DNA of 64,000 bases. Origin: Paraspadella gotoi (taxonomy: Eukaryota > Animalia > Chaetognatha). A model generated the notes under the pieces. That model ran no database searches and had not been told where the DNA came from. It saw only the letters and a list, made by a program, of their open reading frames with translations. Positions 7,126-52,800 of the stretch are shown here, piece by piece. Every line of letters begins with the position of its first letter. Within the stretch, counting starts at the first letter, position 1. The position numbers were made by a program, and so were the translations under genes. The stretch covers positions 13,656,414 through 13,720,413 of the forward strand of contig CM119263.1 of the NCBI GenBank assembly GCA_051294375.1, in the 5' to 3' direction.

Positions 7126-10100
7126 GTTTGCGTTCAAAATGTTTGGTCTAGGTTAATGTTTAGGATGCTCGAGTGTTTTTCGGTTTCGGCTTGTGGAATT
7201 TAGCTCGATTAGCTTGCGATTTCTGTGCAAAGCGCTGTTAAAAGAATTTTTGTAAAGACATTAGTAATTAGACATCTATAACGGTGATGGATTTTAAAAT
7301 TGACGCTGGCTATTGAAAACTCGGGTCTTTATGTTGCTGTTTTGTCTGTGTCTCGCCGTGAATACTTAAATTAAAAGATCATTTTTGGACCAGAAGGTAT
7401 ACGAACCATTTAATCCAGAGATAAGCTTTTTTTTTACACAGTCCCATGCGTTATTAATGTTTTCATTACTCTTTCTTTACTTTATTATTTCTTTTCAGTC
7501 GTTGATTATAATAAAAATATAAATCATTTGTGCTCTACATAACACGACTCTTGCTTTGTAGGTATTGTTCAATTTTCGTTACCGTCGGTTCAATAACGAC
7601 ATTCAGATTTTCCACTAATCTGAGGCATTATTTAATCGATAATAATCAATTCTTATTAAATTTCGTAAGCGATTCTTCAACTTATAGGTAGCTGAATAAT
7701 TTTGATGTTTCGGTCAATTAGGCTCAGGAATTAAGCCAATTAAAAATCGTTAGAAAATATGTCTAAAGTAATATTATAAACATATTAAACATATATAATT
7801 GATTCTGCAGTTTAAAAGAATATTATAAAACGTTTTTCTCCCTATTATTCGTAGTCGAACCAAATTGCCTTGCTCTCTTAAAATTCCTTTATTTCTCCTT
7901 CTTTCCCTGCCACGTCCGGCTGTTCTCAGTTGACCCCTTCATTCTCTCTCTCAACTCACATGACGCTTCTACCCTCTTATGCGATCATGTGGCACGTCTT
8001 TCATTGATCATACTATGGTATCCGCAATCCTACGGTGTTGCCCTCCTTTCCGAGAGTGGACCTGGCTCTTCGCACTCCGACTTCATTTGTTCCTGTTCTA
8101 TGACCAAAATCATAATCAATCGAGCCTCGATAGGAATCACGTGAATTCAGGCATCCCCCACCCCCCCCCTAACTGAGCTCGCTTTTCACTCTTTTTTCGC
8201 TCTCTATGTCGGCGTCTATCTGACTACCGCATCGGGTGCCCTTGCCGTTCCCGCGCTCTCACTTTTCTCTCTCTTCTCTCTCTCTTTCTCTCTCTCTCTC
8301 TCCGTTCTCTCTCTCTCTTCTTCTCTCTTCTCTCTTCTCTCTCTCTTCTCTCTCTCTCTTCTAATTCTTCCTCTTCTCTCTAACGGTCTCTCCCTTCTCG
8401 TCTTCTTCTTCTGTACTACATAGATCTAGATTCTCTTTCGTCGATATTTTTTGATGGAATAACCAGCCTTCCTCTCGATTCAGGCGACGGTCCGATAGAT
8501 TCTGTTTCGGATGTCTCGGTCCCCAGCTCGACGGCGGGAGTTCCCCGCGGAGGTGTCCCGCGCCGACGTTTCAGAGATTTTAGGGTCATTACCAGCCGCT
8601 CGGGTGGGGTTTTCACTCAGCTCACCCCCAGGCCTCGGTTTCCCATTCCGAGAAGTTAAGAAAACTCGCACTTACTCCCATGGGTGGACTGAAAGAGAGA
8701 GACATACGCGAGGAGGAAGATGAACGATGGGGGTCGTAATTGAAATTTCACGCAAAGATTATTTTCATATGTTTTTTTATACTGATATACTTCAATAATC
8801 CATATCTTTACGCTGACAAAATTTATTTCAATAAATCGGACCCTCCTCGATGACTCTCTCTTCAGTCCACCATGGGAAGGTGAGGTTTTCTTAACTTCTC
8901 GAAATGGAACCGAGGCTGGGGCACTCGGCAAAGGGGGCAGCACCGGAGGCGAAAAGCGTCATGTGACCGAGAGAGAATGAAGGGGTCAAGTGAACGCGAC
9001 TGGGAAAGAAGAGAATAAGGATTTAAAGAGAGGCAAAGGCAATTTGGTTGACCGGATCGGGAGAAAACGTTTAAATATTCTTTTTTAAACTGCAGGATAT
9101 AATTTAAATGTTTTAAATGTTTAATGTTAACTTTTACATTTATTCTCTAACGACTTTTATTGGCCTCTTTAATTGCCTGAAGCTAACTTGACGCGAACAC
9201 AAAATTTATTTCAACTAAACCTATAGTTGAAAATGCTCGAATTTAAAATGAATTTAATTATTATTTCGATTAAATAAATGCCTCAGATTAGTAGGCAAAA
9301 TTCTTGATGTTCGGTTATTACCGACGGTAACATTGAACATGCCCAAAAGCAGAGTCGGTGGTTATTAGAGCAAATAATGTTATTTTTTTATTTATCACTG
9401 AAAGAAATAATAAATAAAGAAAGAAAGTATAAAAATTTAATACACGCATTTNNNNNNNNNNNNNNNNNNNNNNNNNNNNNNNNNNNNNNNNNNNNNNNNN
9501 NNNNNNNNNNNNNNNNNNNNNNNNNNNNNNNNNNNNNNNNNNNNNNNNNNNNNNNNNNNNNNNNNNNNNNNNNNNNNNNNNNNNNNNNNNNNNNNNNNNN
9601 NNNNNNNNNNNNNNNNNNNNNNNNNNNNNNNNNNNNNNNNNNNNNNNNNNNNNNNNNNNNNNNNNNNNNNNNNNNNNNNNNNNNNNNNNNNNNNNNNNNN
9701 NNNNNNNNNNNNNNNNNNNNNNNNNNNNNNNNNNNNNNNNNNNNNNNNNNNNNNNNNNNNNNNNNNNNNNNNNNNNNNNNNNNNNNGCATGGGACCTTGT
9801 AAAAAAAAAAGCTTATCTCTGATTAATGGGTCCTTCTGGTCCAAATGAGTCTTTAATTTAAGTATGTCAACGGCGAGACACAGGACAAGACAGCAACACA
9901 AGACCAGTTTTCATAGCCAGCTTCCAATTTTTAAATCCATAGCTGTTTTTAGATGCTAATTACTAATTACTTTCAAAATTTTTAACGCGCTTTGCAAGAA
10001 ATCGCAAGCTATCAACTAAATTCACCAAGCAGCAAACGAAAACAACATCTAAACATTAACCTACCAAACTTGAAACGCAAAAGTTTCTTGTCCGATTCGA

Positions 10101-11224
10101 TCGCGTTCTGATCCCCGTAATATTTCACTTATCCTCCATCGACTCCAGAACGCGACCCTTCGCCTTCTCCCCGTTAATCACGATCCCCATGAACAAAACA
10201 ATCGTCGATGCCGACCCCCGGCACCGACGGCCCCGCGCCGGCTCCGCCCCGCGGCCTCGTCACCCTTTCCGCGCGCCCATCGCTCCGCGGTCGTCGTCGT
10301 GGCCGTTGACGGTGGTCTCCTCCCATTCGAGTCCCTCTGAACTCCTTTCCAGACTCGCGGAGACTCGATCGTGATTTACTGCCTCCCGCGCCGTGGAGGG
10401 ATCCAAAGGANNNNNNNNNNCTCGATTGATTAATGATTTTGGTCAGAAGGAACAAATGAATCGGAGTGCGAAGAGCGCAGGCCACCTCGGAAAGGGGGCA
10501 GCACCGGAGGGAAAGGCGTCACGTGACGAGAGAGAATGAAGGGGTCAATGAACGCGACTGGGAAAGAAGAGAATAAAGGAATTTTAAGAGAGTAAGGCAA
10601 TTTGGTTGACAATGGGAGAAAACCTTTTAAATATTCTTTTTAAACTGCAGATATCAATTTAAATGTTTAAATGTTAATGTTACTTTACATATTTCTACGA
10701 TTTTATTGGCTTAATTCCTGAGCTATTGACCGAACACAAAATTATTCAAGCTACCCCATAAGTTGAAAATGCTCGAATTTAAATAGAAAATATTTTTACT
10801 ATTATTTCGATTAAATAAATGCCTCAGATTAGTAGGAAANNNNNNNNNNNNNNNNNNNNNNNNNNNNNNNNNNNNNNNNNNNNNNNNNNNNNNNNNNNNN
10901 NNNNNNNNNNNNNNNNNNNNNNNNNNNNNNNNNNNNNNNNNNNNNNNNNNNNNNNNNNNNNNNNNNNNNNNNNNNNNNNNNNNNNNNNNNNNNNNNNNNN
11001 NNNNNNNNNNNNNNNNNNNNNNNNNNNNNNNNNNNNNNNNNNNNNNNNNNNNNNNNNNNNNNNNNNNNNNNNNNNNNNNNNNNNNNNNNNNNNNNNNNNN
11101 NNNNNNNNNNNNNNNNNNNNNNNNNNNNAGCTCATCTCTGATTAATGGGTCCTTCTGGTCCAAATGAGACTTTAATTTAAGTATATCAACGGCGAGACAC
11201 AGGACAAGACAGCAACACAAGACC
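7126..11224. repeat. Noisy inverted/direct triplication of a ~1-kb segment around assembly gaps (7126-8110 inverted vs 8925-10082 and 10421-11224; inner palindrome 8630-8720 / 8840-8920)
   Basis: Shared text such as GCCTCAGATTAGTAGG and CGGCGAGACACAGGACAAGACAGCAACACAAGACCA, with many single-base indels between copies; bounded by N runs. Confidence 0.85.
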
Positions 11225-12812
11225 ATGTGAGAGAGAGAGGAGAAAGGACGAGAGAGAGAGATGATATGGGTGAGAGAGAAGAGAAGAGTAGAGCAGGGAG
11301 TAGAGAGTGATGAGAGAGAGAAGAGAGAGAAAGATCGGGATGAGAGAGAGAGAAAAAGACAATAGACAATTAGACAAATATTAGATTACTTGCGGCTTTA
11401 CGCACCATTGATGCGGGCCTTTAAAAGCTACGCTATTTCTCAAGAATATGTTACAATTTGTAATTGACCTGAAATCGAAAAAGTGCATCGCTACTTCTAA
11501 CTACCTAGTCCGGTTGAACAAAATTCATGAAACCTCTCCAATTTGACAAATGAACACAGATTCGCTCCTTTCCCTTAGTTATTTCCCATCCCAGAAGTGA
11601 GTTCTATCGGAGATATATTGGTGTGTTTGAATACGGATTCACAAGAAACATTAGATCAATAATGTCACAATTCAACACAATTGTAAAACGAATAATACGA
11701 GATAAGCATTCTGCTTTAGAAAAGAGTCCGCGTACTATATTTCTGTAACGCGGGATCATGTCTGCTGCATCTAATAAAATGATCCAGATAGGGGTATGGC
11801 TCGCAGGGGTAAATTTGAAAAGTTCTGTATAGGCAAAGTACTGAAGCTTCTGTCAAATTTTTCCCAGGATGCCATCTTGCACCAGCTGAAGCCAACAACA
11901 TGGTGATGAATACATAAATACATGAGGACAACAAAGACAGAGAATAATAAATATGCCGTAAACAAGCACGCGGCTAGTTATCATTTTAGCCGTACAAATC
12001 TAGACAGGCGCATTGATTGCTAAAATTTTTTGATCTTGCTTTAGCTAAAATAGATCATTTAAATGTAGGAGTCCATGTTAATTTTTTATCTTAAGTTACA
12101 TTTCCTAAAAAATTTAAAACTGTTTGACAAACAGANNNNNNNNNNNNNNNNNNNNNNNNNGAGAGAGAGAGAGAGAGAGGAGACATAAAGACAGAGAAAA
12201 ATATATTCTCGGGGGGCTTGATTGAGAACTTTAGAAGTTTCAAAAATAAATTCAAATTGTAAAAATGTAATCATACATAATTTAAATTAAAAAATAAATC
12301 ATAAAATTCTAAATAAAAGATACACGTAAACATTGTTTTTAACAGACCAAAAGAAAACTTATTTTCAAATTTTAAAAGAACAATGAAGATTGTCAGACAA
12401 AAGGCAACGAATTCTCCTCCCTTAATCGTCTAATTTGAGATTCCCCCTTCCCCTTAATCAGAGACTAAAATCTTCGATTGTTGGTCTGCCCTCTACCCTT
12501 TCTTGGAGAAAACAAAAGGTACCGGATTTCTCTCTCTTTCTCTCTCTATTTATCTCTCTCCCTTGGGCGGGGAATTTCAGAGCAAATTTGATCGGATTCC
12601 GCCCCTTGGGGTCAAGGGCGGTCCCGTTTTATGTAACGGCCGCCAAAACGGACCCAGAAACAAAGGCTCCGGGTCACCTCTGGAAAATTGAAAAGAAAAT
12701 CCAGAGAATTCGAGAGAAATCGAGGAGCGGAGCTCAAGTGTCAAAGGAGACGAAGAGACGGGTCACGGTGCCATTGTGTTCAGTTCAGACTCCTTGTCTC
12801 CTATCGCGGTCG

Positions 12813-13191: not shown

Positions 13192-14738
13192 TTTCACTCT
13201 CCAGGACACCCAAGATAGCCCTCCCTCTCTGAGGCATTGAATTCTGCGATTGGGGCGAGCGAACCGACCCTGGAAAAACTTTCACGATCAGTGCCATTTT
13301 TACGACTCGCGTAGTAAGTCAGCGAGCAAGTTACAATTGAATTGGTCCCTCCCCGATCGTGAAACAAATTGGGTTCGTTTATCTATCGAGCGATTTTATT
13401 TCACTAATCGGGAATTTCGGACGATGAAGATTCCGTGAAGATTCATGATTGGGAATTGAATACATTTAATTATTTAATTAATAAATTACTTTCTCGGTAC
13501 AATAACAATCTTCATTATACCACATAAGTTCACGCACACTTTATGTGACTTTAGTGATATTACTGGTAATCAGGAAAATTTGTAGTCGTCGCTGTCTTAG
13601 CATGTTCGTGGTGGTAGTACAATCGTAGTTGTGATAATTTTGGTAGAGGTAATTTTTGCACAGACTTTAGAAGGCAACAACGATCGAGGAATTTGAACCC
13701 GGTGTGTTTGGCGGAGCGAAGGACCACCGCGGCAACGATCGTTGTCAAACCTTTCGATCGCAACTTCGTTCCTTTCTCCTCCTCGCTTTTGTTTATTTCC
13801 GTGATTAATGATCAACGGCGGAGTTCTTTTGTTTTCTGAAATCGACGCGGGAGAAATTATGGCTTGCGTTGGTATGGCATGACTTTGTTTTGTGAATAAT
13901 CAACAATAACATAATTTTTAAATGATATCATCGCTTTATCATTTAAGTTTTCAAGATGAAAGCGAATTTAGAAAAGAAAATTGGCATCTGCTAAACCAGA
14001 ACAAAAAAATATTTGTTGTCGGAGTTACAAACTCATCCCCTCTTGCTGCACCCCGAAAAATAAGAACCGCAGAGTCTAGCGAATTGCGGAACCGTCAATC
14101 CCCTCGCACTAAACCGTTTCCTTTCATCCAGGCGCTAATCCCTCACAAGCAAGTGTCACAAGTAGGCGTGCAATTTGAAGGGGGCCTGGGGGGCCTCGGT
14201 GGAGGCTAGGAAAGTGGGCGTAGAAAAGAAGGAATTGTACAAAAGGGGGCGTCGCGCGAGAGCGTCGAACGCACACAAATCCCGCTGGGGGCTCCAAATC
14301 TCCGACGAAGGAGGCTCTCGAACGTTGACCACAAACCCGAATCCAAAGAGGATTACCACTTCAAAAAAAGGGAAGAAACGAAGAAAAAGAGGAGAGAGAG
14401 AGAGAGAAGAAGAGAGAGAGAGAGAAGAGAAGAGAGAGAGAAGAGAGAGAGGAGAGAGAGAGAGAGAGGAGAGTGGAGAAGAGAAGAGCAAGAGGTGGCC
14501 CCTTGTAATTTGTTACAACAAACATTCGATATTAGTTCGACGTGCGTTCTATCCTTGTTCCTAAAGTTTCAAACGTCGTTCCTTATGGCTTTTATACCAA
14601 ATTCGGTTAACAAAAAATCTAGACCAATGATGGTATAATATATTTTTCTATTTAGCTTTTGATAATTTTTAAAGCAAAAATGTTCGGATTTTTATTACCT
14701 CAAATTCAAAAACAAAAACTCAAATATAAATTTAAAGT

Positions 14739-14877
14739 ATTTAACAAAGTTTGAAAATGGTTTCGTCAACGATTTTATTTATGTACGAACAGTTGGTTCG
14801 ACTCTTCATATTCGAGTCTTCATCAGCGTTAATAATGTATTTTTACAAATTTGTGCAAAGAAGGGAGAAGAAGAGAG

Positions 14878-14921
<44 letters not shown>

Positions 14922-16547
14922 AGGAGAGAGAGAGAGGAGAGAGAGAGAAGAGGGCAAAAAAGGTTTCCAACACAGAGATAGTGGTTAAAGAGTGAGTACA
15001 GTTTTAAGTTGAGGACAGATCAGTTGTGAAAAGAAGTGGAATGGTCAATTGGTGAAAAGAGGGAGAGAGAGACAGAGAGAGAAAGAGAGAGAGAAGGAGA
15101 GAGAAAGAGAGAAAAGAGAGAGACAAAATAATACATTGTGCAATGTACAACAAAGAATAAGTTTAAGTTTAAACTAATAGTGAATGTAACAATTAATCTA
15201 ATAATAAATAGATAGTAATGAAAGGAAAGAAAGTTTTTAAATATGAAATGATACATTTTGTGAGGGATAGATAAGTGACTGTTAAGTAAAAAATTAAGAA
15301 TTAAGATAGAGCTCCATCGTTAAGGCCTTTCATTTGCATAACAAGGGGGCCTGCTCATTTGAGCTCTATATTAATTCTTAATTTTTTTACTTAACAGTCA
15401 CTTATCTATCCCTCACTAAAATGTATCATTTCATATTTAAAAACTTCTTTCCTTTATTTTACTATCTATATTTATTATTAGATTAATTGTTAAATTCACT
15501 ATTAGTTTAAACTTAAACTTATTCTTTGTTGTAAATTGCACAAATAGGGTTGAGTGATGAAAAGATTGAGTGATGTTGAACATTATTTTTTTTGCTGCCT
15601 ATGAATATTAATTAATAAATTTTAAATCCTTTTTAAAAAAAATTTTAGCTTACAGTATAGCAAATTCAATCTATTTATGTAGTAATTATCCTTATAAACT
15701 CGTCCAAATTTTAAAATTAATTTATTTTTTATTTTTAAGAACTGTTTGGGATTCGCTTGCTAAACTAAGAAACTGTATTAAAATGTTATATGGATATTTT
15801 AATGTTTTATTTTTTTGATCACAAAAAATGTCTAAAACATTTTTAAACATATATAAGTTTCTACTACAGAGAATAAAAAGTTCGAGGGAATTTTTTCACG
15901 CGTTTTTTCTTATTTTAAACATTTGAAGATGACAGAATTTTTGGATAACATGTTTTATATTTTTGATTTCAACTTTTATGAGAATCTGAATCTTTATAAA
16001 AGTTTAAAAAATTATTAAAATTTACTATTTTATATGGAATTATTACAAATATATTATATTTTACTATTCTGTTTCCCGAGATAATATTGAACAAAATATT
16101 TTTCTGTAACTTGTTAATCATACTAACTTCACATCTAAATATCATTGTTCGATCAGTTCAATATTTTTTGTTTCTTGAGTGCTCCACTCTATGGCACAAT
16201 GTATTATTTTGTCTCTCTCTTTTCCTTCTTTCTCTCTCCCTTCTCTCTCTCTCTCTCTGTCTCTCTCTCCCTCTTTCACCAACTTGACCATTTCCACTTC
16301 TTTTCACAATGAATCTGTCCTCAACTTAAAACTACGTACTCACTCTTTAACCACTATCTCTGTGTTGGAAAACCTTTTTTGCCCTCTTTTCTCTCTCTCT
16401 CCTCTCCTCTCTCTCTCTCTCTCTCTCCCTTTCTTTTTGCACAAATTGTAAAAATCCCATTATTAACGCTGATTGAAGACTCGAATATGAAGAGTCGAAA
16501 CATGTCCATAAAACCGTTGACGAAACCATTTTCAAACTTTGTTAAAT
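14739..16547. repeat. Large foldback (inverted) repeat: left arm 14739-15314, 46-nt loop, right arm 15361-15543 plus 16194-16547, with 650 bp extra in the right arm
   Basis: Arms are reverse complements, e.g. GTGAGGGATAGATAAGTGACTGTTAAGT / ACTTAACAGTCACTTATCTATCCCTCAC and GGTTTCCAACACAGAGATAGTGGTTAAAGAG / CTCTTTAACCACTATCTCTGTGTTGGAAA(C)C. Confidence 0.92.
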
Positions 16548-17694
16548 CTCTAAACTCAACGAAGCTGAAAGGATTAATACAACAAAATTTAAAGTAATAT
16601 TAAAGTAATTTAATGGCTACCCGACGCTTAAACTTTTGATAGAAACAGTAAAATCTGTTATAATTTAGATATTAAATTGGTAGCCCTTGTTAGTTATATA
16701 ATATATGTGGTTCTAAAGTTAAAAAGGTCAGCAGAGCTAGAAAGGATTCTGACAAGGATTCGGAATTGCAACCAAAAATCGACGGAGGCCGTCACGTCGC
16801 CAACAAAACGCGACGCTTCTAGCAAATCCTGTAAACGTTTCAGTAACGGTAGTCGAGTTATTGTATCCTCGTCGATTTAACCGAACCCCCGGAGTCGCCC
16901 CTGACGTCACCGATGGCGAATCCGAGGCCGAAACATGATAACGACCCATTAACTAATCGTAACAACACCTGATACTGTTTGCGGGACTAATTACCCGTTA
17001 TTATCCGAAGTACATCTGTTCCACGCCAGCACCCCGCCGGTGCTGATTGCTTAACGGCTTGCTTCGCGAAACAGCTGTTAATTTGTGAGATCCTGACGCG
17101 CGGAATTACTATTTTTTGCTCTTTGTCGTGTTAGGCTTTACGTTTCAACGTTTTACTCTCAAAATCTTACTTTCATCTTCATATCTGCTTAGCACAATAT
17201 TGTGTTACCTAACGAATAAAATAATTTTCAAAAATGCTATAAAGCATAATTAGGGAAAACGGCAAATTTTTCTGGGCTGGTAAAACAGTTGTCCGCAAAA
17301 TTCGGCTTACCGTTGAACATTTTGTGTCAAGGCTCCCCGAGATTTCTTTGTAATTACCTGAAAATCGTTAATATCAAAGGTTGTGAACGAGCATATTTAC
17401 GCAAGGATTATTTATGACGATAATTTTAATCATTTGTAAACTCTTGGGATTTTAGTTACGACCTCGGTCGACTCGACTCAATAAAACGCTTTTTGTTGAA
17501 AAGTTCGAGTCTGTTTTCTAAAAATGTTTTGAAAACACAACTGAAAATAGGTCCGAACTTGACCATGGACTGGAGAGACAGGCGCGTACGTTTTTTTGTT
17601 TCTATAAATCTAGCCGCTAACAAGTTTGAGTAAACAATGCCGGATCTGCGTACGATCATTCAGAGGTATTCAGCTAATCAGATGATCTGTTATG

Positions 17695-46807: not shown

Positions 46808-47450
46808 GATCAAATGTTTCGAAGTTATGACTAGACAGCAGCAAGATTCAACCTATCTGAAAATTTAAAACTGCAGACTTAACATGCTAAAGAAAACAGT
46901 CAAAATATAGAAATATTGCTTTGTGGGAAAGAGTATTGGGTAAAAACTGTAAATTCATTAAATCACTCATTTTTAATTGTTGAAATTTTTAAGTTTTTAA
47001 AAAAATATTTCAACTAACAAATTTAGACTTGCTCTCTCGAGTAAATTTTAAATATTCGAAAAGAGCATTCAACGTTTAGTCGCATTTTATTTAAAATTAT
47101 CTTAAATTTATCTAAATCAGAGGAATAAACATTTTCGAGAGCTCTAACAATATTTTAAGTAGTTTGCTTCTCCATCATCCATGACCATGGTCTTACGTTT
47201 TGGTGCGCTTTGAGGCCAATGGTACAATTTCAATTGCCAATCAACGTTTTTTACTATTCAGATTTTACAGTAAACCACGGAAAAAGATTTTTATTCCTCG
47301 GAAAGATCTTTTTTCTGAATGGAAAAAGGAGACAGATTACAGAAGCTTTTTGGAAAGAGAAAAGTAAAAAAAGCAATTTAAATATCTTCGAAAATCAAAG
47401 CTAATGCGATTGTTACGATTTTAGTCAAAATGGTTACCGCGAGTTATATA

Positions 47451-48433: not shown

Positions 48434-48787
48434 TTAAATTGTTTTTTTTTTCCCTTTCTAAAAAATAAAAGGTTTTAATTTTAATATTGACCAATTGCCA
48501 TAACATTCAAATTCATCATTATTTTTTGAATTTGCATTATTTTATTTTTTGAACTTGCATTATTTTTATTTTTGAACTTGCATTATTTATTTTTTGAACT
48601 TGCATTATTTTATTTTTTGAACTTGCATTATTTTATTTTTTGAACTTGCATTATTTTATTTTTTAAACTTGCATTATTTTATTTTTTGAACTTTGCATTA
48701 TTTTATTTTTTGAACTTGCATTATTTTATTTTTTTGAACTTGCATTATTTTATTTTTGAACTTGCATTATTTTATTTTTGAACTTGC

Positions 48788-49022
48788 TATGGTGGACTAA
48801 AATCCGCCAAACCGTTCATCAGCGGCCATTGGTGCCGAAGGCAGTCATTCGCCTCCCAACCCAAAGGTCCCGGGGTTCTAGCCCGGTGGTCGTCTGGCAG
48901 TTAAGAGGGACGGGGCGCTTAACCCGCCTGTAACATGGTGTTACAGCCTGATCCGAAGCTCAGGGACTGATTATATTGAACGGTTCTGTCATTAACACAT
49001 ATCAATAATTACTGTCTCTTCA
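48788..49022 (+). mobile_element. tRNA-derived SINE-like element carrying a twister ribozyme, inserted in a minisatellite unit
   Basis: GC-rich 235-bp block interrupting an AT-rich tandem array, with TTGC on both sides (48784-87, 49023-26). tRNA-like head 48822-48893: acceptor-like GCGGCCA/TGGTCGT, A-box-like TGGTGCCGAAGG, T arm CCGGG-GTTCTAG-CCCGG (B box), residual anticodon loop CTCCCAA with a broken stem. Confidence 0.7.
48898..48969 (+). ncRNA. Twister ribozyme, circularly permuted P5 type (predicted cleavage U48920|A48921)
   Basis: P5 CAGUU(48898-902)/GACUG(48965-969); P2 strand GAGG then core G-A-C-G-G (48909-913); minimal P1 hairpin; UAA at 48920-922; CCC then GCC; P3 UGUAACA/UGUUACA; P4 CCUGA/UCAGG closing loop UCCGAAGC. 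Pseudoknot T1: CG 48954-55 with CG 48911-12. Pseudoknot T2: GC 48926-27 with GC 48958-59. P2 has 3 bp plus a bulged A. Confidence 0.78.
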
Positions 49023-49897
49023 TTGCATTATTTTATTTTTTGAACTTGCATTATTTTATTTTTTGAATTTACATTATTTTATTTTTTGAACTTGTATTAT
49101 TTTATTTTTTGAACTTGTATTATTTTATTTTTTGGACTTTTATTATTTTATTTTTTGGACTTTTATTATTTTATTTTTTGGACTTTTATTATTTTATTTT
49201 TTGGACTTGCATTATTTTTGATATAGACATCTGCCGGGCAGAAATGGGATCCAGGACCAGGCAACATGCTTCCTTCTTTGGGTTAGGCTTTCGAGTAGAG
49301 GGCCGGAGTGGATTTTGTTTCGAATCCGGTATTGTCGGCTTCCCTTCCCCTTCCCTTCCCATGGTTGTTTTGGCAGTGCGGTGAATGAGAATGAGCCATT
49401 GAGCCAGTTTGGGAGGAGAGAGAGTCGCTAATTAGGCGAGTTTTATTGATGGGATCAAAAACTAAGGATATTCTTTATTAAGTACTATTTCGTTTTGATG
49501 AAAAATAAGCGATAGAAATAGACTTAATAATAGTAATAGTTTAATAGTTTAACGAGTCCGAACTGGTTAAAGAAGGTCCAAGCAGGTTAGTCCTTGTTAA
49601 AACCCATCTGATTTAACTGTTTATTATTATTATTGAGATTTTAGAGAAAACGGGGGTAACTTTACTATTCGACGGCCGCAACCAACCTTGGCTACCGGTC
49701 GGTGGTTTGTTAATCTATTGAATTTTGTTTTCCTTCTAGAGTCGTCTGTTTGCGCAGTAATACAAACTTTTTTTCTTAATATCAAAATGTATACTATTTG
49801 AAAAAAAATGTTTCAAGACTCAGATTTTCGAGTTTTCGTTTAATCAAATAAATCTTAATATTATTTTTAGGTTTTAATGTAATCTGGAGTTGACATC

Positions 49898-52800
49898 ATG
49901 GCTTTCAACTTCAAAACATTTTCGAACGTTACTAAACTTTCATATTTATTATCACCGCATGGGCACATATTTCCGAAAAGGGTTAAGCTTAATGAGCAGT
50001 TCTTTCGAAATGAAAGTAGTACAAAACTTACTACGCATTATACGATACATCCAAGAGATAAGGATCCAAGATGGGCTGATGTTGATATGACTCGGTAAGG
50101 GTTTACCCATAACGTCTTAAAATTTTGAGAACATACCCATTTATAACCCAATATTATCTATTTTAGGTTTGAAGATGTGGCCGACGTTGTCATTGTTGGA
50201 GGAGGACCGTCTGGACTTTCAGCATCAATTCGCTTAGCTCAGTTGGCTCAAGAACATGAGAAAGAGCTACGAATTATATTATTAGAAAAAGGGCCATATA
50301 TCGGCGCTCACACCCTTTCTGGGGCTTGCATTGAAACGAAAGCTTTGGATGAACTTATTCCAGATTGGAAAGAAAAAGACGCACCTCTAGATACACCAGT
50401 CACTGAAGACAAATTTTATATTCTGACTAGGAAATGGCGGATACCGCTTCCAATTCTGAAATTCTTTCCTATGTACAATCACGGGAATTACATCGTAAGG
50501 TTAGGCAAATTTGTTGAATGGCTTGGTGCACAGGCTGAAGAGCTTGGAGTTGAAGTATATCCTGGTTTTGCGGCGTCTGAAATTTTATACAACAGTGACG
50601 GTAGCGTAAAAGGTAATAAAGAAAACTTTTTATAAAGATTATTTTTTATAATGATTATTTATTTTAGGGGTTGCCACCAATGATGTGGGCATTCGCAAGG
50701 ATGGATCTCCTTCAGAAAATTTCGAAAGAGGAATGGAATTTCATGCAAAACACACAATATTTAGCGAAGGATGCCACGGTCATCTTACCAAGCAACTTTT
50801 TGAAAAATTTAATTTGCGTAAAAAGTGTTCGCCTCAATCTTATGGCATTGGACTGAAGGTAAGTTTAGGATAAGGATGTTTAGGATTATTTAAAATATAA
50901 TTAGACTTGCTTATCTTAATATTTAAGGAAGTTTGGAAAATTCCTAAAGAAAAGCATCATCCAGGGAAAATTGAGCACACAATTGGATGGCCGCTTGACA
51001 TACATACCTACGGAGGTTCATTTTTGTATCATCTTCAAGAAGACGAACCAATTATTGCCATCGGATTTGTCGTTGGACTCGATTATACAAATCCATATAT
51101 GAGCCCTTATCGTGAATTTCAGAGATTCAAGCATCATCCTTCAATTGCTAAAATTTTAGAAGGAGGTTTGTGCTTTCAGAAATATTAATACATGGTGACT
51201 ATTTTACCAGCAGATCCCGACTCTATAATTCACTTTGTCGGTCCGCCGGTTCGCCCCCTCAATATTGTCGGGCAATCACTTACATCATGTCAGAACATCG
51301 AATTATGATAAATTATGCAAAAAAAATGTCCGTCCGTCTGTCTGTCCATCCGTCCGTCCCACCTTAGCAAAATGCTCCAATAACTCGTGATTGGGTGGTT
51401 GGATTGAATGAAATTTTGTGTGTGGGTAGGAACGTGTGTGATGAAGCTGGATATAAAGTTTCGATGGAATCGTGCGAGTGGAAATAAGTTTAAATGGAAA
51501 AAACATAAGTCGCATTTACTAAAATCTTTTTACTTATTTTAACAAGTAATTATTCTAATTAATCATAATTGGATGGATAGATTGAGTTGAAATTTTGTGT
51601 GGGTAGGAAAGTGTGTGAAGAAGCTAGATATAAAGTTTGACGGAATCGTGCCAGTGGAAATGAGTTTAAATGGAAAAAACATAAGTCACATTTACTTGAA
51701 TCTTTATTATTTATGATTACTAATAAATGTTTTAATTAATTAATTAATGTGAAAAAATTCAGAATTCGGAATGCGGGTTCCGCCTTGTATGCACATCAAG
51801 TAATGTTTTTCAAAGTTAACTATCATTTACTTTGCACAATTTGTAATTTTTTTCAGCATAAAAAAAGCATTTTAAAATTATTTTAATATATAATGAATGA
51901 TAAAGTTGAACATATTTTATAATATAAGAACAATTAGGGGCAAGCTAAAATTTTACTATTTTTATCTCCGTTTTTTTTTTCGCCGAAACGCATTTTTTAT
52001 TGCTTGTTTGAATGAGCTATCTAATGCTGTAATAAATTATAATTAAAACTTTTTATAAGCATCATAAGTTATATGCTATGTCATCCAATATCCCTCTTTT
52101 GGCTTTTTCAATGTAGGAGAACGAGTTGGCTATGGAGCACGAGCGCTTAACGAAGGCGGATTTCAGTCCATACCCAAGCTGTCTTTTCCTGGCGGGAGTC
52201 TTATTGGTTGTGCCCCAGGATTTTTGAATGTACCTAAAATTAAAGGAACCCACACGGCAATGAAGTCAGGAATAGTTGCTGCCGAGACAATATTCAAAGC
52301 TTTGACTGATGAGAGTAGAACCAACAACACGGAAGGAGTTTTTGTGCCTGGTAAAATAATAAAATTGTTTTTAGCCGGATCTGCATATTGCAGATTCCGG
52401 CTATACGATTCACTTTGTCTGTCCGTCGATCGGTAAGTTACTTAAAATATTAAATTATGCAAAAAACCGATGTCCGTCTGTCTGTCCGTCCCAACCCAGC
52501 TTTAAGTTATAATCAACCATCGCTGTTTTTTTTTCAAAGAGTACGAAGAAAAACTGAAGAAGAGTTGGGTCTGGTCCGAACTGATGGCAGTGAGAAACGT
52601 GCGTCCATCTTTCCACAACCCTTTGGGGATGTGGGGTGGCCTGTTATACACAGGGTTATTTTACATTATCGGAAGAGGAAAGGAGCCTTGGACCTTATCC
52701 CATGGAAAACCTGATTACGAACGACTCAAGCCGGCCAGGGAGAGCATTCCCATCGAGTATCCAAAACCTGATGGGAAATTAAGCTTCGAATTGTTAGGTA

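Follow-up and report, generated by a model that had tools for sequence, protein, structure and literature searches.

A likely solo LTR with a tRNA-like segment and a P5-order twister-like fold in Paraspadella gotoi

To our knowledge, long terminal repeat (LTR) retrozymes have been described mainly from plants and only with hammerhead ribozymes, and most twister ribozymes have no settled biological role. Here we describe a 235-bp insert in a 64-kb window (the whole stretch of DNA analysed, 64,000 nucleotides, positions 13,656,414 to 13,720,413 of contig CM119263.1) of the chaetognath Paraspadella gotoi, which carries a tRNA-like segment followed by a twister-like fold in P5 order. We read it as likely a solo LTR from a Helenus-like (TRIMp3) retrotransposon that is non-autonomous and would act as an LTR retrozyme in an animal, and put the probability of this reading at roughly 0.5.

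Plant LTR retrozymes have a ribozyme in each LTR, a circular RNA, a 4-bp target duplication and solo LTRs (Cervera et al. 2016, PMC4918200). The insert resembles them in its 4-bp duplication, its likely solo-LTR form and the putative ribozyme inside it, with a Gypsy helper and a circular RNA proposed as well. The plant elements differ in their type III hammerheads and in their LTRs of 300-400 bp, and a tRNA-like promoter goes unmentioned in the accessible part of that paper (PMC4918200). In place of the type III hammerhead of LTR retrozymes, the insert has a twister-like fold.

Among animal elements, Helenus has 4-bp duplications, Gypsy helpers, solo LTRs and LTRs of up to 323 bp (Kojima 2024, PMC10886601); in the supplement of that paper, five wasp Helenus LTRs start with TA and end with CA, and in most of the Helenus LTRs seen the tRNA-like part is directly followed by a run of T. 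The insert matches Helenus/TRIMp3 in its tRNA-like sequence within a short terminal unit, its 4-bp duplication, its TA...CA termini (as in some of the LTRs) and its size, whereas it differs in having a twister fold, in the missing T run behind the tRNA-like part and in an A box that departs from TRGCY/YGG. The paper describes no ribozyme in the part available, the word standing in its main text only in the title of a reference, and the loop motif of the insert's twister has no occurrence in the supplement as accessed, line breaks aside. Two LTRs of Synergus wasps in this supplement, Helenus-2_SyJa and Helenus-2_SyUm, contain by eye only an apparently complete type III hammerhead behind the tRNA-like part; they have no T4 there, the fold is unremarked in the accessible text of PMC10886601, and they are candidate animal LTR retrozymes. 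The insert shares their layout (tRNA-like part, ribozyme-like fold, no T4) and has a similar first dozen bases, whereas its fold is a P5-order twister and theirs is, by eye, hammerhead-like. Separately, the 12 bases at 48917-48928 are common to two Ajax LTRs in the same supplement, which have no twister elements, and this is probably chance.

Ribozymes are also known from non-LTR elements of animals: twisters stand at the 5' end of RTE elements (PMC8501958; PMC7761336), schistosomes have SINE-like repeats (SINE, short interspersed nuclear element) with hammerheads (PMC6765202), and animal non-LTR retrozymes have been tied to Penelope elements in a text whose accessible part mentions neither twister nor tRNA (10.64898/2026.07.22.740005). 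Schistosoma Perere-3, like the insert, has a twister with a weak P1 in an animal retroelement, but it is a non-LTR element in which the twister marks the 5' end and P1 is drawn partly from the target site (PMC8501958). Sm-alpha, also an RNA polymerase III (Pol III) repeat with a ribozyme, differs in that its ribozyme is a hammerhead and the element non-LTR (PMC6765202). A literature search that covered neither Repbase, nor the bulk of subscription papers, nor the supplementary files of the first twister studies turned up no report of a twister within an LTR element, a terminal-repeat retrotransposon in miniature or a SINE, and within the same limits none on a natural dimeric twister.

Ends, promoter-like segment and dispersal of the insert

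The insert interrupts a 23-bp minisatellite (48519-48787 and 49023-49218). Its coordinates and anatomy, checked against the sequence and a pair table, are those given by the first-pass annotation, a model's reading of the letters of the window:

48788..49022, + strand: whole element, 235 bp, termini TA...CA, no tail; likely a solo LTR
48784..48787, no strand: left copy of the 4-bp target-site duplication TTGC, read from the sequence, outside the family ends
49023..49026, no strand: right copy of the 4-bp target-site duplication TTGC, read from the sequence
48519..48787, no strand: host 23-bp minisatellite left of the insertion, not element; it continues at 49023-49218, and contig depth is near zero outside 48788-49022
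48790..48809, + strand: terminal 7-bp hairpin upstream of the tRNA-like part, from computed pairing
48810..48818, + strand: left arm of a weak 9-bp inverted repeat (31 of 1000 shuffles reach 9 bp) that encloses the tRNA-like part and the twister
48977..48985, + strand: right arm of the 9-bp inverted repeat, partner of 48810-48818
48822..48893, + strand: tRNA-like segment with an acceptor-like stem (48822-28/48887-93), a weak A-box-like motif near 48830-41 and a B-box-like motif at 48874-83
48896..48971, + strand: twister-like fold in P5 order (P5, P2, GACGG, 6-nt P1, U/AA, T2, P3, P4, L4), from a structural descriptor, the pair table and two covariance models
48914..48919, + strand: P1 remnant, made up of a single G-U pair and the palindromic tetraloop GCGC that it closes; being self-complementary, it could give two copies a common 6-bp P1

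Insertion by an integrase is marked by fixed ends, a terminal CA and a duplication of 4 bp. Here the family starts at a fixed position, 34 bp before the tRNA-like part, and stops at a fixed 3' end that lacks a tail; together with the 4-bp duplication on either side of the insert, this argues for an integrase-type (LTR) insertion.

The family was followed in public sequencing runs, 11 of the 13 listed containing part of the element; eight (X1, X4, X5, X8, X9, X10, X11 and X12) were compared. Family records were frequent in five of these, which represent one organism and three studies (X1, 4524 of 2,712,481; X4, 10,719 of 7,042,937; X5, 1525 of 582,731; X8, 2039 of 688,116; X10, 707 of 448,509), and scarce in the others (X9, 2 of 392,053; X11, 1 of 7,612,311; X12, 0 of 7,743,421), so that X9, X11 and X12 provided no diverged family usable for covariation. 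None of the 13 was listed as an RNA run with the element; X10 may be of RNA. Contigs running over the ends of the element numbered 502 in X1, 799 in X4 and 111 in X10; hundreds of junctions are thus shown, and the copy number is likely in the thousands. At least 55 contigs of X8 leave the reference before 48788 (flank agreement 0.45), and behind 49022 at least 82 of X5 and at least 123 of X8 do so (flank agreement 0.43). Sharp ends with unlike flanks indicate that the family is dispersed and that TTGC is a true 4-bp duplication at the insert site, the agreement of the flank consensus 4-mers being too low to define a target preference. The multi-copy mobile family that the first-pass annotation had proposed is therefore present, dispersed and sharp-ended in the five rich runs. 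One contig of X8 joins 49022 to 48788 head to tail over four palindromic letters, the only such joint among those listed; the four letters may represent a target duplication that both copies share, or else a junction of two LTRs that escaped processing.

These ends bear on the class of the element. The first-pass annotation had labelled it a SINE, that is, a tRNA-derived element moved by target-primed reverse transcription with the twister in its body, akin to Sm-alpha or non-LTR retrozymes. Such an origin would fit the position of the tRNA-like part near the 5' end and the higher read depth over the 3' half, and has parallels in the hammerhead-bearing SINE-like repeats of schistosomes (PMC6765202) and the twisters at RTE 5' ends (PMC8501958). 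The label is not supported. A SINE would begin with its tRNA-like head and close with a variable tail, between longer duplications of varied length; the element instead has no tail, a fixed 3' end, a duplication of 4 bp and, upstream of the putative promoter, 34 fixed bp that a lone copy could not restore from an internal Pol III start. In animals, non-LTR retrozymes show larger duplications and occur in tandem (PMC7229834), in contrast to the one head-to-tail joint listed here, and an active ribozyme in the body of a SINE would cut off its head (PMC5786205). We consider a SINE quite unlikely.

A capture of the tRNA-twister cassette by a non-autonomous DNA element, either a Helentron-associated HINE or a Ginger/Sola-like MITE (a miniature transposable element with inverted repeats), is very unlikely. 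The terminal hairpin and the 9-bp subterminal inverted repeat are in line with it, as are the full-length fixed ends, and an intact internal ribozyme would be no obstacle to DNA transposition. HINEs, however, are described with no target duplication, T-run sites and repeats of 12-15 bp, one of them 2-4 nt from the 5' end (PMC4067079), whereas the insert has a 4-bp duplication and 9-bp arms lying 22 and 37 nt inside; a 9-bp repeat is reached by shuffled sequences at the rate given above, and terminal inverted repeats as expected of a MITE are missing. A Helentron as the principal interpretation was rejected on the 4-bp duplication and on repeats that are short, internal and weak.

The tRNA-like segment is, from its sequence, a putative Pol III promoter. 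The first-pass annotation had called it a tRNA-like head. Its acceptor-like stem has 7 bp, a T-arm-like hairpin has 5 bp, and GGTTC stands as a B-box-like motif; the A box is weak, and neither ARAGORN nor Rfam called a tRNA in the segment. Common family variants at 48890 and 48893 turn G-U pairs of the acceptor-like stem into G-C and keep the pairing, and the common variant at 48896, in P5 of the twister, likewise changes G-U to a Watson-Crick pair. The + strand of the element has no run of three or more T.

From these parts a life cycle can be proposed for a two-LTR parent. Transcription by Pol III would begin at the tRNA-like promoter in the 5' LTR and continue, since the promoter is not followed by a terminator. 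Each LTR's twister would cut at U48920|A48921, releasing a unit-length RNA with a 5'-OH and a 2',3'-cyclic phosphate that a host tRNA ligase would close into a circle; a Gypsy-type reverse transcriptase and integrase would turn this circle into inserted DNA, in solo-LTR, full or tandem form and flanked by a duplication of 4 bp. The P5 permutation would be natural in this model, since the other LTR restores the half of the ribozyme that lies upstream of the cut. The retrozyme-like system that the first-pass annotation had offered beside its SINE label is supported.

The twister-like fold and its natural precedents

The sequence 48896..48971 is a real twister-derived fold in P5 order. Its P5 strands are 48898-902 and 48965-69, GACGG occupies 48909-13 with G48909 at the general-base position, the 6-nt P1 linker is 48914-19 and U|AA is 48920-22, with the predicted cleavage at U48920|A48921. 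CCC at 48923-25 would form a strand of P2, GC at 48926-27 pairs with 48958-59 as T2, P3 has 8 bp, the L4 loop is 48952-59 and T1 is C48911-G48955. The conserved core (GAxGG, U|AA, GC and the L4 loop) is thus present in P5 order with both T1 and T2 complementary. The first-pass annotation had listed every twister element in this permuted order and a perfect 5-bp P4; the descriptor, the pair table and a covariance model reproduced the former, and P4 consists of five Watson-Crick pairs with a predicted probability of 0.97-0.99.

The structural descriptor matched once in the 64-kb window, and 100,000 dinucleotide-shuffled versions of the element gave no match. With four phage twisters as its input (P5-order with P3, none from the window), a covariance model had 48906-48964 as its sole match on both strands of the 64 kb (20.4 bits, E 0.013); for this model the four phage sequences were realigned, a MAFFT alignment of 13 mixed twisters being too poor. 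In a second covariance model, from 99 aligned matches, the element ranked first of three (18.7 bits, E 0.048); the E-values of both models are rough. A resemblance arising by chance, for which the modest scores and the silence of Rfam (below) might be cited, is largely refuted and extremely improbable: the shuffles gave nothing, the independent model found a sole match in 64 kb, and the L4 loop together with GACGG exactly equals a natural twister subtype.

Compared with the described twister type P5 (RF02684), which makes up 1% of annotated twisters (PMC6154101), the element has the same strand order, GAxGG, UAA, GC, L4 loop, T1, T2 and P4, and a putative P2, whereas its P1 is reduced to 6 nt, P3 and P5 helices are present, the inner P4 pair is A-U and not G-C, P2 would carry a mismatch and no Rfam match is obtained. 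The unusual features were therefore compared with natural twisters in phage and prokaryotic DNA, with patterns that fixed the inner P4 pairs as GG/CC, other P4 ends being unsampled.

The swapped T1 pair, which the first-pass annotation had explained as a compensatory change (CCG with GACGG), has ample precedent. With both letters left free, 106 distinct P5-order phage sequences had 90 G-C, 16 C-G and no mismatched T1 pairs. Among P1-order viral loci, P2 and P4 accompanied the swapped T1 pattern in 44 of 46 cases and the usual pattern in 101 of 110, and in prokaryote genomes 7 of 8 swapped-T1 P1-order loci had both helices. Rfam twister-P1 matched 17 of the 20 swapped-T1 loci tested, every one below the gathering score, so that standard annotation misses them. 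The swapped-T1 subtype is common in phage and gut-bacterial DNA. Mutagenesis of the rice twister found most T1 pairs swappable and P1 not essential (PMC5113685).

The 3-nt P2 strand is natural as well, 76 of 90 matches (in 62 of 75 loci) passing with it; all 12 chosen loci exceeded the gathering score of Rfam Twister-P5, three of them combining the T1 swap with a short P2. Some phage contigs have three to five P5-order twisters with a 3-bp P2 per 1-1.5 kb. The first-pass annotation had expected intact copies to have a 4-bp P2 (CCUC/GAGG), but no insertion at 48923-26 was listed in the eight runs compared, which indicates that the family itself has the 3-nt strand, and given the phage examples the supposedly missing base is not needed. 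P2 mismatches are often tolerated in the rice twister (PMC5113685; PMC9901934; PMC5408937).

The minimal P1 fared less well. It is dispensable in published twister mutants (PMC5113685; PMC5408937, in the parts available), as the first-pass annotation had assumed, but the 6-nt spacer has no precedent among the natural P5-order examples, all 106 of which have 14-30 nt. A pattern specific for the family gave no locus in the JGI metagenomes and a looser one gave 61 loci there, none with twister structure; the first viral patterns scored 0 of 46, with only 2 real twisters among the 239 loci collected by then, and blastn against phage and plasmid sequences found no match.

Within the family, the common variant at 48936 falls in the P3 loop, and at 48970 at least 97% of the depth in the five rich runs differs from the window copy, the family base extending P5. 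Minor variants are mostly C-to-T and G-to-A at CpG.

Predicted activity and a possible shared P1

Several observations weigh against a working LTR retrozyme. The 4-bp duplication was seen at one site and one tandem joint only. No two-LTR copy, internal region, primer binding site or polypurine tract was seen, although read summaries would hide a minority internal region and the absence of the last two beside the window copy is expected of a solo LTR with duplication; nor does the element have a long terminal inverted repeat. Summed depth, which is not a copy number, rises by a factor of 2-4 from the tRNA-like part to the twister, an excess that may reflect 5'-truncated copies, or indels of the window copy in its 5' half together with graph branching. 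The scores of the two covariance models are modest (18.7-20.4 bits), and the Rfam search proposed by the first-pass annotation returned no twister match on the element or the window up to E 10, nor at the gathering score. The phage positive controls do match Rfam Twister-P5, a model with an 8-bp P1 and no P3; the same search of element and window gave no hammerhead match. Fold prediction favoured a competing helix (48911-14/48923-26 with 48908-09/48927-28), the active-compatible fold being 7.5 kcal/mol worse (pseudoknot energy uncounted), a cost that 1 of the 112 natural twisters compared also reaches (medians 3.3-3.4). P2 is left with two Watson-Crick pairs and a C-A mismatch or bulged A at a predicted probability of 0, and both covariance models align it in a slipped register that pairs G48909 itself. 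Finally, a G-to-A variant at 48955, which breaks T1 and is probably CpG decay, makes up 4-13% of the depth in three runs. In a predicted fold of the read-through transcript, 49012-49020 pairs with the purine strand 48903-48913 and displaces P5, a possible second off switch.

The misfolding, the slipped P2 register, a P1 shorter than in all 106 natural examples and the missing Rfam match would also be expected if the twister were a dead or nearly dead relic and the family spread as an ordinary TRIMp3 element with terminal redundancy, the fold being a passenger or a structural signal. Decay of this kind is unlikely in view of the core nucleotides and both pseudoknots, which are intact in the majority of copies. 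No variant reaches a quarter of the depth in the core (48909-13, 48920-28 and 48952-59), which is weak evidence as few variants are common anywhere. Against a relic also stand the self-complementarity of the P1 remnant and the lack of a terminator after the promoter, unlike most of the Helenus LTRs seen (PMC10886601 supplement). In our judgement, the chance that the predicted ribozyme cleaves in some context is a little above even. A lone copy is predicted to cut weakly, and a pair of copies with a common P1 may be required for efficient cleavage.

A precedent for such sharing is the axolotl hammerhead HHR_Amex1 of non-LTR retrozymes, whose helix III is one pair with a palindromic tetraloop and which cuts poorly alone and well as a dimer (PMC7229834). 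The P1 remnant is likewise a helix cut to one pair and a palindromic tetraloop, whereas HHR_Amex1 is a hammerhead in tandem repeats without LTR features, and the dimer dependence shown there is only predicted here. When a dimer of 48895-48975 was folded with the catalytic bases kept free, it gave a double twister with swapped strands, in which P2 was formed and a 6-bp P1 was shared, at -46.9 kcal/mol, compared with 2 x -17.8 kcal/mol for constrained and 2 x -25.3 kcal/mol for free monomers. Constrained folding ranked this topology best in 1 of 60 linker permutations, which was the natural linker, and in 2 of 500 random linkers. Three points count against it: other folds bring 43 of the 60 permutations to the same constrained energy or below, the unconstrained dimer (-61.8 kcal/mol) keeps the competing helix, and 216 of all 4096 hexamers are self-complementary. 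The dimer energy was consequently rejected as proof, on the first two of these points, and the modelling suggests the double twister as a lead, not a result. In its strict form, the palindromic P1 remnants of the two LTRs of a tRNA-type, Pol III-driven animal LTR retrozyme would pair into one common helix of 6 bp that has an active site at either end; only two-LTR transcripts would then be cut, and the misfolded single-copy circle would be protected from re-cleavage; we regard this obligate arrangement as possible but doubtful.

If the LTR-retrozyme reading is true, a high-copy animal family would combine a Pol III promoter, LTR-type ends and a twister, and the class of ribozyme would be interchangeable in retrozymes. 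TRIMp3 elements would then be linked to retrozymes, with the hammerhead-like wasp LTRs as a second case. The double twister, if true, would be a natural dimer-gated twister, the counterpart of the double hammerhead, and a useful part for making circular RNA. Comparing cleavage of monomer and dimer at one named bond is the direct test that the family offers.

Surroundings of the insert

The genes of the window are of animal type (spliced FGF, CDC27 and ETFDH). The closest named matches to the CDC27 and ETFDH exons do not exceed 47% and 74% identity, respectively, and are scattered across many animal groups. The insert lies between CDC27 on the minus strand, whose last coding exon found ends near 46850, and ETFDH on the plus strand, which likely starts near 49900; the minisatellite between these divergent genes is AT-rich, with about 20 copies of 23 bp. 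No second copy of the element was found in the 64-kb window. A minus-strand segment at 52155-52170 matches the 5' hairpin region of the element in 15 of 16 positions (E 0.5) and may be chance. Elsewhere in the window, long inverted repeats at 14731-16554 and 15136-15543, including a 408-bp near-palindrome, are possibly MITE-like, and a cluster of inverted and direct repeat segments (90-560 bp, 75-97% identity) at 7127-11225 adjoins assembly gaps.
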